Assembly (NCBI RefSeq): GCF_053078305.1
Contig: NZ_CP166879.1
Direction: 5' to 3' (one strand)
DNA length: 64,000 nt
Of this stretch, positions 8,949-59,579 are shown piece after piece; within the stretch, counting starts at the first letter, position 1; the number at the start of each line of letters is the position of its first letter. Below the pieces are notes generated by a model. That model was given only the letters and a program-made list of their open reading frames with translations, made no database searches and was not told the DNA's origin. Made by a program: the position numbers and the translations under genes.

Positions 8949-9317
8949 GTCGACAGGGAGTCAGACAACGAAGTGAACATCAGGATGATGACACTTCTGA
9001 AGGACACACCAGGATGGTGTTTCAGGGAAAGGCTTCTGGATGAAGCGAAGAGGATGACGCAGGACGCGTTAAAGGACACCTCCAGGATGGAGAATGAGAA
9101 CCGGTCAGGATGATCCGGTGGGTCAGGAAGGCCAGGGACACTTCAGGATGAAGTATCACATCGGGGTGGTGTGAGCAGGAAGCAATAGTTCAGGATGAAC
9201 GATTGGCCGCAAGGCCAGAGGAAAAGTTGTCAAGGATGAGCAGGGAGCAACAAAAGTAGCTGGAATGCTGCGAAACGAACCGGGAGCACTGTGAATACAG
9301 TGCTCCCTTTTTTTATT
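8949..9317 (+). ncRNA. csrB: CsrB small RNA (CsrA-sequestering)
   Basis: About 370 nt non-coding stretch with many CAGGATG / AGGA(T)G GGA-motifs spaced every 15-30 nt; ends in hairpin GGGAGCACTG...CAGTGCTCCC plus T7 run at 9282-9314. Confidence 0.92.
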
Positions 9318-31645: not shown

Positions 31646-32528
31646 GAGTTCCCCGCGCTAGCGGGGATAAACCGTAATGAGTCAGGGGAATACCGAATAT
31701 TTTATAGAGTTCCCCGCGCTAGCGGGGATAAACCGAAATTTATCGAGATCGGCAGGGGTTACTGACAGAGTTCCCCGCGCTAGCGGGGATAAACCGGCCG
31801 TTAATCCGGACTGCCAGCGAATAACGCTGAGTTCCCCGCGCTAGCGGGGATAAACCGCAACATATTTAAACGATTTAAGCCAGGCATATGAGTTCCCCGC
31901 GCTAGCGGGGATAAACCGGGATTCATCACGCGGTTATCCGGGGGCCGTTAGAGTTCCCCGCGCTAGCGGGGATAAACCGGTGGTTGCGGGGTTATCGGTG
32001 GTAGTCACAATGAGTTCCCCGCGCTAGCGGGGATAAACCGCTCCAGCTCGATATCACACGACGCTATATCAGGAGTTCCCCGCGCTAGCGGGGATAAACC
32101 GGAAACAGCGCCCGCCGGTGCTGCGTTACCGTGGAGTTCCCCGCGCTAGCGGGGATAAACCGCCAACAAACTCATTTGCACTGGATTCGTGGATGAGTTC
32201 CCCGCGCTAGCGGGGATAAACCGACCGGCGCAATTGTTTTTCAGCAGCACCCGGCGAGTTCCCCGCGCTAGCGGGGATAAACCGTATTTTCTTTGTTGCG
32301 GTAGGCAATATCGCCAGAGTTCCCCGCGCTAGCGGGGATAAACCGGTATTTTGTCACGACCAGCACGAGGCCGAATAGAGTTCCCCGCGCCAGCGGGGAT
32401 AAACCGCCCCAACTCATGCCCACATGAAAAACGTTGACGAGTTCCCCGCGCCAGCGGGGATAAACCGCCGCAAAAGGTATTATTTTTATCCGTCAGTACG
32501 AGTTCCCCGCGCCAGCGGGGATAAACCA
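31646..32528 (+). CRISPR. CRISPR array, 15 repeats of 29 bp, 14 spacers of 32 bp (type I-E repeat)
   Basis: Exact 61-bp periodicity; 12 repeats GAGTTCCCCGCGCTAGCGGGGATAAACCG then 3 leader-distal repeats with CCAGCG loop; terminal repeat ends ...AACCA. Confidence 0.97.
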
Positions 32529-32996: not shown

Positions 32997-33119
32997 ACAG
33001 GGATAAACCGAACTAGTTAAAGTTTTTATTATGTTCCCTGCATCAGCGGGGATAAACCGGACTTGTTATCATTTTTTAAGTTGTCGAACTTATGTTCCCC
33101 GCGCCAGCGGGGATAACCA
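32997..33119 (+). CRISPR. Vestigial CRISPR remnant (degenerate repeats)
   Basis: Partial repeat GGATAAACCG at 33001, ATGTTCCCTGCATCAGCGGGGATAAACCG at 33031-33059, ATGTTCCCCGCGCCAGCGGGGATAACC at 33092-33118; another fragment near 32617-32637. Confidence 0.7.
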
Positions 33120-48959: not shown

Positions 48960-49223
48960 ATATTGCCGGATAAATTAAACGCCTCTGTCAGAAATGATGG
49001 GGGCGTTTTTATTTTGCGAGCAGCATTCCTGATTTTAAACGTGAACGCCGCTGGAAGAATTAACAGGTATAGAATGGTGTTGGGTGCTTGAGGCTGTCTG
49101 GCGTTAAGCATTCGCGAGGTTCCAGATGGACAAAAGCCCCAGGCGATATTTCTATCAACCTGAGGCCAGCGTTCGAACCTAAGCAATTCGAATGTTAGTC
49201 TCTTCTTTGCAGGGAGGCAAGAC

Positions 49224-49376
49224 ATGCTGACAAAATATGCCCTTGTGGCAATCATCGTACTGTGTTGTACAGTACTGGGATTCACGCTGATGGTAGGCGA
49301 CTCGTTGTGTGAGTTGAGTATCAGAGAACGTGGTATGGAGTTTAAGGCTGTTCTCGCTTACGAATCGAAGAAGTAG
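49224..49376 (+). CDS. hokX: Hok/Gef-family type I toxin (probable hokX)
   Basis: 50-codon ORF, not in the ORF track because under 60 aa; hydrophobic N-terminal TM segment plus conserved Hok C-terminal pattern (LCEL..R...EF.A.LAYESK); followed by a hairpin. Confidence 0.65.
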
Positions 49377-49568: not shown

Positions 49569-52268
49569 ATGCGTAAATATCCTTTAAGTTTACTGAAGGA
49601 TAAAAATATTGTGACTTTCTTTGATTTCTGGGGAAAAACCCGACGCGACGAGAAAGAAGGGGGTGACGACTATCACCTTCTTTGCTGGCATTCGCTGGAT
49701 GTGGCCGCGATGGGCTATTTAATGGTTAAAAGAAATTGCTTCGGGCTGGCTGATTATTTTCGTCAATTAGGGATTTCTGACAAGGAACAGGCGGCTCAAT
49801 TTTTCGCCTGGTTGTTGTGCTGGCACGATATTGGAAAATTTGCCCGCTCATTTCAGCAACTTTACCTGCACCCACAACTCAAGGTTCTGGAAGGCGCAAG
49901 AAAGAATTACGAAAAGATCTCTCATTCAACGCTGGGCTACTGGTTGTGGCATCATTATTTAAGTGAATGCGAAGAATTGCTTCCTGCCTCTTCACTCTCT
50001 ACTCGCAAACTTAAACGTGTAATAGCGATGTGGATGCCCATGACTACCGGGCATCATGGTCGGCCCCCTGACCGTATTGATGAACTGGATAATTTTCTGC
50101 CTGAAGACAAAGCTGCCGCACGAGATTTTCTCCTTGAAATCAAGTCACTGTTTCCGCTCATAGAGATTCCCACATTCTGGGATGATGACGAGGGCGTTGA
50201 ACTTTTAAAACAACTTTCCTGGTATATCTCTGCAACAGTCGTACTCGCAGACTGGACGGGTTCGTCAACGCGATTTTTTCCACGCGTCGCACAGACAATG
50301 AATATTAAAGATTACTGGCAGAAAACTTTAGTTCAGGCTCAAAACGCCTTAACCGTCTTTCCTCCAAAAGCAGAAACCGCACCTTTCACCGGAATTAATA
50401 CGCTGTTTCCTTTTATTGAGCACCCGACACCATTACAGCAAAAGGTACTGGATCTGGATATCAGCCAGCCAGGGCCACAGTTATTTATTCTGGAAGATGT
50501 GACTGGCGCAGGTAAAACAGAAGCGGCGCTTATCCTGGCGCACAGGTTGATGGCTGAGAATAAAGCTCAGGGTTTGTTTTTTGGCCTGCCAACAATGGCA
50601 ACGGCCAATGCCATGTACGATCGGCTGGTCAAAACCTGGCTTGCTTTCTTTTCGCCAGAATCCCGCCCCAGCCTGGTGCTGGCACACAGCGCCCGTACAT
50701 TAATGGAACGCTTTAATGAATCACTCTGGTCCGGTGATTTAGTCGGGTCAGAAGAACCGGATGAACAAGCGTTCAGTCAAGGATGTGCAGCCTGGTTTGC
50801 CGACAGTAACAAGAAGGCTTTACTGGCTGAAATTGGCGTCGGCACGCTGGATCAGGCGATGATGGCAGTGATGCCGTTTAAACATAATAATCTGCGGCTT
50901 CTGGGGTTGAGTAACAAAATCCTGCTGGCTGATGAGATCCACGCCTGTGACGCTTACATGTCGTACATTCTTGAAGGGTTGATTGAGCGACAGGTGCGTG
51001 GCGGAAACAGCGTCATTTTGCTTTCTGCTACGTTATCTCAACAGCAGCGCGACAAACTTGTCGCCGCCTTTGCGCGTGGCACAGAGGGCCAGCAAGAAGC
51101 TCCGTTCCTGGAAAAGGATGATTACCCCTGGCTGACGCATGTCACGAAATCCGATGTGCATTCGCACCGGGTAGCGACGCGCAAAGACGTTGAGCGTAGC
51201 GTGAGCGTGGGTTGGCTTCATAGCGAACAAGAATGTATTGCGCGTATCGAATCAGCGGTAAGTCAGGGGAAATGCATCGCCTGGATCCGGAATTCTGTCG
51301 ATGACGCTATTAAGGTTTATCGTCAGTTACTTGCCCGCGGCGTCATTCCTGCTTCCAGCCTTTCACTTTTTCATAGCCGCTTTGCTTTTAGCGATCGCCA
51401 GCGAATTGAAACGGAAACGCTGGCACGCTTTGGTAAAAATTGTAGTTTAAAAAGATCATCTCAAGTCATTGTTTGTACACAAGTAATTGAGCAAAGTGTG
51501 GATATTGACCTGGACGAAATGATCTCCGACCTGGCCCCCATTGATTTGCTGATCCAGCGAGCGGGGCGATTACAACGGCATATTCGTGATATTAATGGTC
51601 AGTTAAAACGTGATGGAAAAGACGAGCGTTCCCCTCCTGAATTGCTGATTCTGGCCCCCGTCTGGGACGACTCTCCGGGTGACGAATGGTTTGGTAGTGC
51701 GATGCGTAACAGCGCATATGTCTACCCCGATCATGGGCGAATCTGGCTGACGCAGCGAGTATTGCGTGAGCAAGGCGCTATTCAGATGCCACACGCAGCC
51801 CGGCTTCTTATTGAATCCGTCTACGGTGAGGACGTGGTAATGCCGGAAGGATTTGCCCGCAGCGAGCAGGAGCAAGTGGGCAAATATTACTGCGATCGCG
51901 CAATGGCTAAAAAGTTTATGCTGAACTTCAGGCCCGGCTATGCCGCCAATATCAACGATTACCTCCCGGAAAAGCTGTCGACACGTCTGGCTGAAGAGTC
52001 TGTTTCCCTGTGGCTGGCTACCTGTATTGACGGTGTGGTGAAGCCTTATGCCAGCGGTGCTCACGCATGGGAAATGAGCGTTGCCAGAGTGCGTCGAAGC
52101 TGGTGGAAAAAACATCGGGATGAATTTTCTTTACTGGAAGGGGAAGCGTTCAGGCAGTGGTGCATTGAACAACGGCAAGATCCGGAGATGGCAAACGTGA
52201 TTTTAGTCACCGATGACGAAAGCTGCGGGTATTCGGCTACGGAAGGATTGATTGGCAAGGTTGATTGA
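49569..52268 (+). CDS. cas3: Cas3 HD nuclease / helicase (type I-E)
   Basis: 899 aa; HD motifs (HSLDVAA, HDIGK), Walker A (GAGKTEAA), DEAH-like box (LADEIHACD); preceded by AT-rich promoter region. Confidence 0.92.
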   Translation: MRKYPLSLLKDKNIVTFFDFWGKTRRDEKEGGDDYHLLCWHSLDVAAMGYLMVKRNCFGLADYFRQLGISDKEQAAQFFAWLLCWHDIGKFARSFQQLYLHPQLKVLEGARKNYEKISHSTLGYWLWHHYLSECEELLPASSLSTRKLKRVIAMWMPMTTGHHGRPPDRIDELDNFLPEDKAAARDFLLEIKSLFPLIEIPTFWDDDEGVELLKQLSWYISATVVLADWTGSSTRFFPRVAQTMNIKDYWQKTLVQAQNALTVFPPKAETAPFTGINTLFPFIEHPTPLQQKVLDLDISQPGPQLFILEDVTGAGKTEAALILAHRLMAENKAQGLFFGLPTMATANAMYDRLVKTWLAFFSPESRPSLVLAHSARTLMERFNESLWSGDLVGSEEPDEQAFSQGCAAWFADSNKKALLAEIGVGTLDQAMMAVMPFKHNNLRLLGLSNKILLADEIHACDAYMSYILEGLIERQVRGGNSVILLSATLSQQQRDKLVAAFARGTEGQQEAPFLEKDDYPWLTHVTKSDVHSHRVATRKDVERSVSVGWLHSEQECIARIESAVSQGKCIAWIRNSVDDAIKVYRQLLARGVIPASSLSLFHSRFAFSDRQRIETETLARFGKNCSLKRSSQVIVCTQVIEQSVDIDLDEMISDLAPIDLLIQRAGRLQRHIRDINGQLKRDGKDERSPPELLILAPVWDDSPGDEWFGSAMRNSAYVYPDHGRIWLTQRVLREQGAIQMPHAARLLIESVYGEDVVMPEGFARSEQEQVGKYYCDRAMAKKFMLNFRPGYAANINDYLPEKLSTRLAEESVSLWLATCIDGVVKPYASGAHAWEMSVARVRRSWWKKHRDEFSLLEGEAFRQWCIEQRQDPEMANVILVTDDESCGYSATEGLIGKVD

Positions 52269-52271
52269 GAT

Positions 52272-52323
52272 GCCCTGGCGTCGGATGACGCCAGGGCTTA
52301 TCCCCGCTGACGCGGGGAACAGG
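52272..52323. repeat. Perfect 11-bp hairpin followed by inverted orphan CRISPR-repeat-like sequence
   Basis: GCCCTGGCGTC-ggat-GACGCCAGGGC at 52272-52297; minus-strand reading of 52295-52323 is CCTGTTCCCCGCGTCAGCGGGGATAAGCC, 25 of 27 identical to the array repeat. Confidence 0.8.
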
Positions 52324-52718
52324 AACCAATTTTTGTATCTCACTAACTTGGTTAATCCCTAGAATCAGGGAATGGATTTATTTTATCAATGCTATTGTGA
52401 TTATGATAGATGGGTAATTGCTATGAGTTAATGAGAAACAAAAATTTTAAATAATGTCCGGATCCGGAGTTGAGTCACACCGTTACAAGGCGTATTTTCG
52501 TGACCGGTGAAAAGCTGCGGTGAAGAGGACTACGATGTTGTCGATTTTTTTGCTTCAACTTGTGCTAAGTCTGCTTTCAAAACGACAAACTAAGTTCGAT
52601 TTTCGTATCACATTCAACGTCTTTTCTTTTATCCGACTCAGATTAAGTCTCCAACTAAATCTGAAAATATGGTGATGGACAACCGACCAGGGATGGTCTT
52701 TTCTACGAGAGGATGCGT

Positions 52719-54281
52719 ATGAACTCGTTTTCACTTCTGACAACCCCGTGGTTGCCCGTTCGTTTTAAAGACGGAACGACAGGCAAACTGGCGCCAGTCG
52801 ATCTGGCTGATGAAAATGTTGTCGATATCGCTGCGCCACGAGCAGATCTCCAGGGAGCAGCATGGCAGTTTTTACTGGGGCTACTACAAACCAGTTTCGC
52901 GCCCAAAAATCATGGTCGTTGGGATGATATCTGGCAAGACGGACTGGAAGCCGAAAAGCTACGGGAAGCATTGCTGTCTTTAGAACATGCTTTCCAGTTT
53001 GGGCCAGATTCCCCTTCATTTATGCAGGATTTCGAGGCGCTCACGGGAGATAAAGTTCAGGTTGCTTCATTACTGCCTGAGATTCCCGGCGCTCAAACAA
53101 CGAAGTTTAATAAAGACCACTTTATTAAGCGTGGCGTGACTGAACACGTATGCCCTCATTGTTCCGCGTTAGCTCTGTTCTCCCTACAGTTAAATGCACC
53201 GTCAGGCGGCAAAGGCTACCGAACCGGTTTACGCGGCGGTGGGCCGATGACGACTCTGATTGAATTGCAGGAGTATCAGGGCAATCAACAAGCCCCCTTG
53301 TGGCGCAAACTGTGGCTCAACGTGATGCCGCAGGATGAAGCCGACTTACCGCTACCCAAAAAATTTGACGATCTGGTTTTCCCCTGGCTTGGCCCGACGC
53401 GTACCAGCGAACTGGCCGGTGCGGTGGTAACCGATGATCAGGTCAATAAACTCCAGGCGTACTGGGGAATGCCGCGGCGTATTCGTATTGATTTTAATAC
53501 CACGACAGTCGGCAACTGCGATATTTGCGGTGAGCAGGACGACGCGCTTCTGAGCCTGATGACGACCAAAAATTACGGTGCGAATTATGCCATGTGGCAG
53601 CATCCATTAACGCCTTACCGTGTACCACTTAAAGAGGGTGGCGAGTTTTACTCAGTTAAACCACAACCAGGCGGTTTAATTTGGCGCGACTGGTTAGGCC
53701 TTATCGAAACGGGTAAGTCAGAAAACAATACGGAACTTCCCGCTCTGGTGGTGAAACTCTTTAATGCCAGCAGTCTCAAGCAGGCAAAAGTAGGCCTATG
53801 GGGATTTGGCTATGATTTCGACAACATGAAAGCCCGCTGTTGGTACGAACACCGTTTCCCGCTGCTGCTCAATAAAAAAGAAGGCCAGATACCGAAACTG
53901 CGGCTGGCTGCGCAAACGGCTTCACGCATTCTAAGTCTGTTACGGAGTGCATTGAAAGAAGCATGGTTCTCCGATCCAAAAGGTGCACGGGGTGATTTCA
54001 GTTTTGTGGATATCGACTTCTGGAACAAAACTCAGCATCGCTTCCTGAGGTTAGTGCGCCAAATTGAAGAAGGTCAGGATGCGGATGAATTACTCAGCAA
54101 ATGGAATAAGGAGATTTGGTTATTCTCGCGTCAGGATTTTGACGAGCGTGTATTCACCAATCCTTATGAGCCCGTTGATTTAAAACGCGTCATGACCGCG
54201 CGCAAAAAATATTTTACAACATCGGCGGAGAAGCAAAATGCTAAAGCCGCCAGGGAGAAAAAGCAGGAGGCTGCTGAATGA
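52719..54281 (+). CDS. cse1: Cse1/CasA (Cas8e), Cascade large subunit
   Basis: About 520 aa first gene of Cascade operon; ATG 52719 has better RBS spacing than 52713; position between cas3 and cse2. Confidence 0.85.
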   Translation: MNSFSLLTTPWLPVRFKDGTTGKLAPVDLADENVVDIAAPRADLQGAAWQFLLGLLQTSFAPKNHGRWDDIWQDGLEAEKLREALLSLEHAFQFGPDSPSFMQDFEALTGDKVQVASLLPEIPGAQTTKFNKDHFIKRGVTEHVCPHCSALALFSLQLNAPSGGKGYRTGLRGGGPMTTLIELQEYQGNQQAPLWRKLWLNVMPQDEADLPLPKKFDDLVFPWLGPTRTSELAGAVVTDDQVNKLQAYWGMPRRIRIDFNTTTVGNCDICGEQDDALLSLMTTKNYGANYAMWQHPLTPYRVPLKEGGEFYSVKPQPGGLIWRDWLGLIETGKSENNTELPALVVKLFNASSLKQAKVGLWGFGYDFDNMKARCWYEHRFPLLLNKKEGQIPKLRLAAQTASRILSLLRSALKEAWFSDPKGARGDFSFVDIDFWNKTQHRFLRLVRQIEEGQDADELLSKWNKEIWLFSRQDFDERVFTNPYEPVDLKRVMTARKKYFTTSAEKQNAKAAREKKQEAAE

Positions 54282-58483: not shown

Positions 58484-58579
58484 GTTATGTGTTCTTTAAA
58501 AATAAGGAAATGTTTGAATTTAGTTGGTAGATTGTTGATGTGGAATAAATTTGTTTAAAAACAGATATGTATGCTTAGT
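58484..58579 (+). promoter_or_regulatory. CRISPR leader for array 1
   Basis: AT-rich, contains AGTTGGTAGATTGT at 58522-58535, 45 nt upstream of first repeat. Confidence 0.8.
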
Positions 58580-59579
58580 GTGTTCCCCGCGCCAGCGGGG
58601 ATAAACCGGGGGGGCAATAATATGTGCGGCGGATCACCAGGTGTTCCCCGCGCCAGCGGGGATAAACCGTCGGAAAAATGGCTGGCCTCAACGGTGAAAA
58701 CGTGTTCCCCGCGCCAGCGGGGATAAACCGCCAGGGTGAAACTTTTCGCTGACGTAAATAAAGTGTTCCCCGCGCCAGCGGGGATAAACCGACAATCACA
58801 TATACGACGCGAGACGGAGATCGGTGTTCCCCGCGCCAGCGGGGATAAACCGTGATGGGCGAATACAAGCGCTGGCGCAACGAGGTGTTCCCCGCGCCAG
58901 CGGGGATAAACCCGGCATTCTTAACCGGCGCAACAAGGGGGGCGCGTGTTCCCCGCGCCAGCGGGGATAAACCGGTTAACTCCAGGTGGCGCGGCAGTGT
59001 TCAGAAGTGTTCCCCGCGCCAGCGGGGATAAACCGTGCTCTCATTTGTGTCGGCATCACTCGCGTCGGTGTTCCCCGCGCCAGCGGGGATAAACCGTCTG
59101 CCGCGAGCTGGTCTACGCCTACGCCATGGTGTTCCCCGCGCCAGCGGGGATAAACCGACATATGCCACAACCAGGCGAAGAAAAGTGTTCCCCGCGCCAG
59201 CGGGGATAAACCGCCCGTCACCGACGCGCAGTGGCGCTACCGTGAGTGTTCCCCGCGCCAGCGGGGATAAACCGGTCGCTGGGTTATTTTGTGTTGTGGG
59301 GCGATCGTGTTCCCCGCGCCAGCGGGGATAAACCGCTCATATTCGGATTGATCGTGTGTTTCGGTTTGTGTTCCCCGCGCCAGCGGGGATAAACCTGCGT
59401 ATATCTGTTGATGCGCACGGCGTGGCGGGTGTTCCCCGCGCCAGCGGGGATAAACCGAATGATTTAATACCAGACGCAGAGTGCCACACGTGTTCCCCGC
59501 GCCAGCGGGGATAAACCGGGCGCACTGGATGCGATGATGGATATCACTTAGAATTCCCCGCCCCTGCGGTAGAACACCC
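58580..59579 (+). CRISPR. CRISPR array, 17 repeats (GTGTTCCCCGCGCCAGCGGGGATAAACCG), 16 spacers
   Basis: 61-bp periodicity except one 56-bp unit (27-nt spacer at 59158-59184); degenerate terminal repeat GAATTCCCCGCCCCTGCGGTAGAACACCC at 59551-59579. Confidence 0.97.

Follow-up and report, generated by a model that had tools for sequence, protein, structure and literature searches.

The stretch analysed here, hereafter the window, comprises 64,000 nucleotides (nt) of Escherichia coli chromosome (contig NZ_CP166879.1), with the gene order cysJIH, hok/sok, cas3, casABCDE, cas1, cas2, CRISPR, iap. A complete type I-E cas set, including cas6e, is annotated in a genome 99.9% identical to the window. 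Our subject is the gap between cas3 and casA, where an inverted CRISPR repeat and a GC-rich hairpin (GC hairpin) directly follow the cas3 stop codon. We compared this gap with related loci and with creR and creA, the regulatory mini-CRISPRs already described in enterobacteria. Coordinates are given in Table 1.

Repeats and hairpin in the cas3-casA gap

The cas-adjacent array is built from the repeat GTGTTCCCCGCGCCAGCGGGGATAAACCG, present in 16 copies on the + strand (58580-59518). A sequence-only reading of the window had noted a further copy behind cas3, on the minus strand of 52295-52323, which reads CCTGTTCCCCGCGTCAGCGGGGATAAGCC as stated; the copy in register with the array repeat is 52294-52322 and is here called psiR2. 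Its identity to the array repeat is 25/27 over the inner 27 nt, as claimed. The 7 base pair (bp) stem is likewise intact, whereas the tetraloop, which had also been taken as identical, differs (GCCA to GUCA) and accounts for one of the two inner mismatches. When the 26-mer of psiR2 was searched for with up to three mismatches, the matches were its own site, the array repeats and a relic repeat at 33092-33117. The same search gave no match in 100 shuffles, which excludes chance as the source of the repeat likeness. psiR2 is inverted relative to both CRISPR arrays of the window and to the cas operon, and it would supply the Cas6e hairpin, or 3' handle, CUGUUCCCCGCGUCAGCGGGG. This hairpin is predicted on the strand antisense to cas3 only, in agreement with the earlier reading on both counts.

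The repeat is not an orphan left over from an old array, as had been proposed. A second, degenerate repeat, psiR1, lies 26 nt away, and the two enclose one spacer-like sequence, psiS, inside the cas locus and outside the array. By eye, psiR1 is ~13/29 identical to the array repeat, and the likeness lies mainly in its 5'-handle segment (GGGAUUAACCA, compared with GGGAUAAACCG in the array repeat); the same pattern of degeneration was observed in all related loci. The decay is asymmetric, with the 5' handle held by psiR1 and the hairpin or 3' handle by psiR2. CreR, likewise a degenerate mini-CRISPR, shows the same division, its 5' handle being retained in psiR1 and its 3' handle in psiR2 (Liu et al., bioRxiv 10.1101/2023.03.10.532045; Cell Host Microbe 2023). 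The predicted precursor RNA contains three hairpins (psiR1, psiR2 and the GC hairpin) and has a folding z of -5.95. An acquiring CRISPR array was rejected as an identity for the element, since psiR1 and psiR2 are not identical to the array repeat and the flanks are unlike the leader (58484-58579).

The GC hairpin begins 3 nt past the cas3 stop with the perfect 11-bp stem that the sequence-only reading had described, and its psiR2-side arm shares the last 4 nt of psiR2. It folds in 12 of 12 loci. Pairs were scored by script from the loop outwards, because a 1-nt bulge in the hairpins outside E. coli shifts an ungapped alignment out of register. Counted in this way, the inner nine pairs contained a single non-pair among 108 cells, and double-sided compensatory changes were found at four stem positions, one of which has three pair types. 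These compensatory changes and the near-absence of non-pairs identify the hairpin as a conserved structure and not a by-product. On the sequence evidence, it is a conserved structural part of the mini-CRISPR module. A text search of key papers on such elements found no mention of it.

Most likely, the GC hairpin would insulate the cas3 and creA transcripts, which converge here, or form a 3' barrier between them. Burial of the end of the 5'-handle-like AUAAGCCC downstream of the Cas6e cut is a further possible role, and this burial may bar RNA antisense to cas3 from use as a guide. A Rho-independent terminator was considered and rejected: no U-tract is found on either strand (flanks UUAUCCCC on the + strand and AUCUCAAU on the minus strand), and a terminator scan gave no call. 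Rfam models at gathering thresholds found only two ordinary E. coli features in the whole window, leaving the intergenic region empty. These are CsrB (8958-9317) and the sok antitoxin RNA (49082-49239), which lies just upstream of cas3 where a Hok/Gef coding sequence is annotated in the near-identical genome.

The psiS target and its co-variation in related loci

In type I-E Cascade, every sixth guide base is flipped out and unpaired. A match to psiS flanked by a protospacer adjacent motif (PAM) was found 78 bp beyond psiS, upstream of casA. Over positions 1-21 its mismatches fall only at 6 and 12, which are positions unpaired in Cascade, and positions 22-26 do not match. Within the window, psiS positions 1-21 fit just two places, psiS itself and this target, and the match in the gap was equalled by none of 3000 psiS shuffles. 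As a positive control, the same search found the published CreA target of Citrobacter rodentium, with its ATG PAM and a 14-nt seed run. A spacer-like psiS with a seed-perfect, PAM-flanked match upstream of casA would link the element to the casA promoter region. The earlier suggestion of a cis element connecting Cascade or Cas6e to cas3 expression survives as a predicted link to cas gene expression; control of cas3 itself is not what the observations indicate.

Related loci, numbered with the prefix L, were gathered from GTDB genomes (with a CasA query), from metagenomes and from CasA homologues, the C. rodentium locus (L048) via its CasA protein; a metagenome scan for the hairpin plus psiR2 gave three contigs. 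A lack of conservation in related loci, which the sequence-only reading had allowed for, was not what we found. The same layout, consisting of the cas3 stop, GC hairpin, psiR2, psiS, psiR1 and, 60-135 bp further on, a PAM-flanked seed match, is present in the window, L003, L002, L047, L004, L011, L014, L048, L051, L057 and L058, and without the hairpin in L055. The hosts are E. coli 135, 06-00048 and TUM14771, Klebsiella spallanzanii, Atlantibacter, C. rodentium and one lineage of Salmonella enterica, together with several Logan and metagenome assemblies. The architecture therefore spans at least five genera (Escherichia, Klebsiella, Atlantibacter, Salmonella and Citrobacter). The PAM is ATG or AAG throughout, and the target may lie on either strand. 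psiS is 19, 26-27 or 32-33 nt long across the loci, near 32 minus multiples of six; shortened spacers give Cascade with fewer Cas7 subunits, which these lengths would fit.

psiS is mostly unrelated between lineages, each of which has its own matching target. Besides the window, 11 loci have distinct psiS/target pairs, and in nine of the 11 loci tested the match was equalled by 0/3000 shuffles. At position 15, psiS and target both have A in the window and both have T in L003; in L055, positions 14 and 16 are altered in psiS and target alike. Target position 6 varies freely among the window, L003 and L055. The psiR2 stem is paired in all 12 loci counted, with a C:G to U:A double change in L003 and L014 (Atlantibacter). 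Its U-G wobbles in C. rodentium and L057 pair on the minus strand only, indicating that the minus-strand RNA is the selected molecule.

The window-like allele L055 (Logan SRR33471270, 555-835) has a psiR2 that is a perfect array repeat and a psiS that matches its target over 23 nt with one real mismatch. Neither cas3 nor the GC hairpin precedes its mini-CRISPR, other sequence lying upstream, and it has no cargo open reading frame (ORF); it looks like a plain creR-only state. In Chimaeribacter californicus (L015, ~2170-2260), two inverted repeat-like sequences, CTATCCCCGCTAATGTGGGGAAC and CGGTTTAGCCCACAGCGTGGGAACAG (cas strand), occur ~800 bp before casA and are followed by an extended AT-rich gap that contains several short ORFs. 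They may belong to a more distantly related mini-CRISPR.

Elements of this type are already known from this gap of enterobacteria: those of S. enterica and C. rodentium have been validated, and one has been predicted in E. coli. The psiS of S. enterica I-E CreR partially matches a PAM-flanked site at the cas promoter; CreR repressed PcasA 8.6-fold via E. coli Cascade, and repression was lifted by excess CRISPR RNA (crRNA) or AcrIE8 (Liu et al., 10.1101/2023.03.10.532045). Like the window element, it is a two-repeat mini-CRISPR in the cas3-casA gap with a PAM-flanked psiS site upstream of casA. The S. enterica locus used for our comparison was L051, the strain of the CreR authors being ATCC 51960. 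L051 has the same position, the same GC hairpin past the cas3 stop and a psiS that starts AGTTAGT, as in the window. In contrast, psiS and target have diverged past these first 7 nt, and the PAM is AAG in S. enterica CreR and ATG in the window. The distance from target to casA is ~140 bp in S. enterica CreR and ~265-290 bp in the window, where it is longer because of a ~170-bp insertion with an ORF of 46 amino acids (aa). The shared hairpin, position and AGTTAGT start suggest that the window element is orthologous and that its guide and target have diverged.

In C. rodentium, 495 bp separate cas3 from casA. This gap holds an opposite-strand creA, a target flanked by ATG at a promoter and a 96-bp ORF that is toxic when translated once Cascade has been lost (InducTn-seq, Nat Microbiol 2025, PMC12055562). 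The same pipeline reproduced this anatomy exactly, including the 495-bp intergenic region as published. The window resembles this CreTA module in having creA opposite cas3, an ATG-flanked target upstream of a promoter, a short ORF with a ribosome-binding site (RBS) between target and casA, and the same GC hairpin directly after the cas3 stop. It differs in the ORF itself, CreT being the 32-aa peptide MQEESTRFKCLFLRMMVRLGKKLSISFQLSLH and the 46-aa ORF of the window being unrelated. Mini-arrays between cas3 and cas8 have been described in ~19% of bacterial I-E loci, including an E. coli locus, transcribed opposite to cas3 and with a PAM-bearing target in the cas8/casA promoter region (Shmakov et al. 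2023, PMC10120712). The window element shares their locus position, direction and type of target.

In two further systems, the Haloarcula hispanica type I-B CreTA and the Streptococcus pyogenes Cas9 tracr-L (II-A), a degenerate, partial-match guide likewise makes the effector a repressor, and the repressed target is a toxin and/or the effector's own genes. Both belong to other subtypes and have no sequence relationship to the window element. The H. hispanica toxin, in the account of Li et al. (Science 2021), is reportedly an RNA that sequesters tRNA. We found no phage-borne mimic (Cracr) of psiS: a scan of viral contigs gave three matches, which is the chance level for 18 specified bases, all within unrelated coding sequence and without repeat-like flanks. 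A blastn search of the mini-CRISPR against GenBank phages gave nothing.

Taken together, these observations make it very probable that a regulatory mini-CRISPR of the creR/creA type lies on the minus strand, antisense to cas3, with the inverted repeat as its psiR2. Most likely, the guide of this mini-CRISPR would steer the cell's own Cascade onto the promoter region upstream of casA. RNA production, Cas6e processing and Cascade-dependent repression have been demonstrated for the S. enterica and C. rodentium orthologues, and by analogy with these we infer a similar course of events for the window. Cas6e of the adjacent complete I-E system would cut psiR1 and psiR2 each at the hairpin base, giving a crRNA-like RNA of ~55 nt that consists of the 5' handle AUUAACCA, the 26-nt psiS and the psiR2-derived 3' hairpin. 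Carried by Cascade, this RNA would pair with the ATG-flanked 52426-52446 over 21 nt, mismatched only where guide bases are unpaired in any case. Because the PAM-distal end of the guide would stay unpaired, Cascade would sit as a repressor upstream of casA without licensing Cas3 cutting. The outcome would be feedback on transcription of the downstream unit, the 46-aa ORF and casABCDE-cas1-cas2, whose expression would rise when crRNAs titrate Cascade or anti-CRISPRs block it. Since the principle has already been published, the gain is incremental. Specific to this allele is the ~170-bp insertion with its ORF, and the unrelated cargo ORF, the conserved GC hairpin and the distribution of the locus in E. 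coli are worth following.

Table 1. Features of the cas3-casA region, in window coordinates
Feature	Position	Strand	Description
cas3 ORF	49569-52268 (stop TGA 52266-52268)	+	Cas3 by the annotation of an E. coli genome with 99.9% identity
GC hairpin	52272-52297	.	11-bp perfect stem, 4-nt loop; GCCCTGGCGTC-GGAT-GACGCCAGGGC
psiR2 (reported as orphan repeat)	52294-52322	-	25/29 identical to array repeat; CTGTTCCCCGCGTCAGCGGGGATAAGCCC
psiS	52323-52348	-	26-nt spacer-like guide between psiR1 and psiR2; AGTTAGTGAGATACAAAAATTGGTTC
psiR1	52349-52377	-	degenerate upstream repeat, short hairpin and 5'-handle segment kept; ATCCATTCCCTGATTCTAGGGATTAACCA
Candidate extended -10 for mini-CRISPR	52380-52388	-	predicted from sequence; TGATAAAAT
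Alternative candidate minus-strand promoter	-35 52431-52426; -10 52408-52403	-	TTAACT / TATCAT; consensus scan
PAM	52423-52425	+	ATG, among interference-proficient type I-E PAMs
psiS target (protospacer)	52426-52451	+	positions 1-21 (52426-52446) match except 6 and 12
Second candidate -10	52450-52455	+	AATAAT; abuts psiS target
Candidate sigma-70 promoter towards casA	52470-52498	+	-35 TTGAGT 52470-52475, 17-nt spacer, -10 TATTTT 52493-52498
46-aa ORF	52535-52675	+	MLSIFLLQLVLSLLSKRQTKFDFRITFNVFSFIRLRLSLQLNLKIW (MLSIFLL...); strong Shine-Dalgarno sequence GAAGAGGA 52522-52529, 5-nt spacing
casA	52719-54281	+	start per PGAP annotation of a 99.9% identical genome; in-frame ATG also at 52713

Predicted promoters and the 46-aa ORF upstream of casA

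The candidate extended -10 next to psiR1 has a TGnTAnnAT-like motif at the same place in L003, L055 and L002. The minus-strand promoter proposed by a consensus scan was disfavoured, being unconserved in relatives, and the conserved extended -10 nearer psiR1, also a prediction, looks better. Towards casA, the best candidate promoter by sequence is the sigma-70 promoter at 52470-52498. The TTG of its -35 and the TAnnTT of its -10 are in register across four diverged loci, and it scores 8/12, under the threshold of the consensus scan.

Two further features of this segment were noted. A 12-nt perfect palindrome, TCCGGATCCGGA (52457-52468), lies between the psiS target and the conserved -35. It is kept as TCCG-N4-CGGA in L003 and L055 and partly in L002, and it may be a regulator binding site. 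In the casA leader, a small hairpin with GGA in its loop, GACCAGGGATGGTC (52685-52698), precedes the casA start by 20-25 nt and is kept as CCA(G/T/C)GGA(T/C)GG in Escherichia, Klebsiella, Citrobacter, Salmonella, Atlantibacter and Chimaeribacter. A second GGA lies within the Shine-Dalgarno sequence, and we take the two sites to resemble a CsrA binding pair, as a candidate only.

The 46-aa ORF sits within the ~170-bp insertion, which separates the targeted promoter region from the casA RBS and is missing from the otherwise collinear L055, whose promoter leads straight to the casA leader. The predicted peptide is hydrophobic and basic, with a grand average of hydropathy (GRAVY) of 0.73 and 7 K+R compared with 1 D+E. 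By position and composition, it is a candidate Cascade-repressed cargo or toxin. The second of these options extends the regulatory explanation and does not exclude it: a toxin silenced by Cascade-CreA would be released on loss or inhibition of Cascade, and the cell would be addicted to its Cascade genes. We consider this possible, although on balance we lean against it.

Several observations argue for such a toxin. The layout equals that of C. rodentium CreTA in its opposite-strand creA, ATG-flanked target, promoter, short ORF with RBS, and casA. The strong Shine-Dalgarno sequence, the hydrophobic and basic composition and the absence of the insertion from L055 point the same way. Other alleles hold other short ORFs in the same slot, of 49 aa in L045 and of the 32-aa CreT family in L004, L011, L014, L057 and L058. 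These CreT homologues (z 8-22) are found in E. coli TUM14771, Klebsiella, Atlantibacter, L057 and L058, and the ORFs of L004 and L011 show, by eye, many synonymous differences. Distribution was counted over 5426 complete E. coli genomes, of which six carry the 46-aa ORF; among these six the ORF segment is 99.6-100% identical, whereas the creA segment is 93% identical between two subgroups.

Other observations speak against a toxin. Comparison of the 46-aa ORF with the C. rodentium CreT family gave z values of 0.7-2.9, against 8-22 within the family, so that homology to CreT was not detected. No homologues were found in NCBIfam, PADLOC or a set of 5.8 billion proteins, and PHROGs gave matches at the level of noise (E = 0.07-0.2). 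When plasmid and phage DNA was compared with the ORF region, only the casA-proximal 40 bp matched, in misfiled chromosomes. The ORF is invariant in the six genomes and therefore offers no substitution pattern indicating translation, and L002 and L055 carry the regulator without such an ORF.

A broader proposal would make the 46-aa ORF a new peptide toxin unrelated to CreT and this allele an E. coli CreTA addiction module. The gap would then be a slot for repeated toxin capture under one guide/target switch, with the GC hairpin as a required part. We regard this as rather unlikely. As a separate observation, the S. enterica locus L051 (1365-1445) has a very hydrophobic 26-aa ORF, MFNSLFLLINLNVFFERIVFLIHIHL, between target and casA. 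It is a possible toxin and of note because CreR was published as 'seemingly standalone'.

Distribution in E. coli and competing explanations

cas3/casA flanks as in the window were found in 2450 of the 5426 genomes, and the hairpin with psiR2 in 16, six of which have the window-type allele. Strains with this allele include JX21CE8, 23CRST027 and ECNB21-M121. The 97-bp cas3-casA gap (L001 1770-1866; L007-L009) lacks the hairpin, mini-CRISPR, target, promoter region and ORF, all cleanly gone, with a breakpoint directly after GATGCC, 3 nt into the hairpin. The same deleted state occurs in E. albertii.

The K-12-type intergenic region was found in 1132 genomes. In K-12 MG1655 (L006, NC_000913.3 2883900-2885000), a weathered mini-CRISPR was observed on the minus strand at ~655-575. 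The psiR1 of this copy has survived well (antisense strand CACCTTCCCTACTTAAGTAGGGATAAACCG; cas strand CGGTTTATCCCTACTTAAGTAGGGAAGGTG), and the psiS, TTATTGGTCTTATTAT..., has an AAG-flanked partial target, TTATTCGTTTTATTAT, with real mismatches at 9 and 17. The K-12 psiR2 overlaps the cas3 stop and is barely recognisable, and the GC hairpin is absent; the window, in contrast, belongs to the other E. coli cas variant and has a near-perfect psiR2. An antisense anti-Pcas transcript of 150-200 nt has been mapped in the K-12 intergenic region, according to the account of Pul et al. 2010 given in PMC7074321, and the weathered copy sits at that place. The anti-Pcas RNA probably originates from this copy, which is probably also the E. 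coli locus shown by Shmakov et al.

Some of the data weigh against a functional regulatory mini-CRISPR in the window. About 2,430 of the 2,450 flank-sharing genomes have lost the whole module, leaving the 97-bp gap, so the module can be dispensed with. Apparent decay is seen in two related loci, L046 lacking a target and L045 having only 8-nt seeds. Both promoters are predictions, and we infer expression in this strain; the single minus-strand promoter found by the consensus scan is no more than expected by chance. The psiS target lies ~20-45 bp upstream of the conserved -35, so that repression by binding there is putative. Finally, the psiR1 stem is short (5-6 bp), and its cleavage by Cas6e is predicted.

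The absence of the element from most E. coli with these flanks and the decay seen in L046 would also be expected if the repeat had no function and had persisted by chance, as a relic of a former inverted array or of a junction where cas variants had recombined. Stray degenerate repeats do exist in this genome, for example at 33001-33117. A relic, however, would not keep a PAM-flanked seed match that co-varies with psiS in more than 10 loci of five genera, with 0/3000 shuffles in each of nine. Compensatory changes in both hairpins and exact retention of the handle-forming part of each repeat would be equally unexpected, and the orthologues have a demonstrated function. We therefore consider a relic very improbable.

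We hold it to be just as improbable that the GC hairpin and repeat stem act on the + strand only, as a cas3 terminator or stabiliser of the mRNA 3' end: the GC hairpin does lie 3 nt past the cas3 stop in every locus that has it, both stems fold equally well on the + strand (-39.2 kcal/mol), and a 3' barrier for cas3 mRNA would be compatible with the regulatory mini-CRISPR, but neither stem is followed by a U-tract or called as a terminator on that strand, only the minus strand can form the U-G wobbles seen in C. rodentium and L057 (psiR2 stem) and in L014 (GC hairpin), L055 retains the mini-CRISPR without adjoining cas3 or GC hairpin, and psiR1, psiS, the PAM-flanked target and their co-variation would be left unexplained.

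Other CRISPR features were noted in the window. A second I-E array (31646-32528) has 15 repeats, the first 12 with T in the loop (GAGTTCCCCGCGCTAGCGGGG...) and the last three with the usual C. The two or three stray degenerate repeats at 33001-33117, ATGTTCCCTGCATCAGCGGGGATAAACCG and ATGTTCCCCGCGCCAGCGGGGATAACC, lie ~500 bp past it. In the cas-adjacent array, one repeat-to-repeat distance (59129-59213) is 56 nt and not 61, giving a spacer of 27 nt and not 32.

The E. coli genomes thus present three states of one locus: an intact switch (16 genomes), the degraded K-12 type (1132) and a clean deletion (~2,430). This distribution bears on the frequent silence of E. coli I-E systems. The regulatory mini-CRISPR would give a stray, junk-like inverted repeat a role in a self-regulating circuit that controls the amount of Cascade, and such a circuit may make cells dependent on keeping Cascade. 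The natural psiS/target pairs would, in addition, provide a ready set of partial-match guides that bind without cutting.

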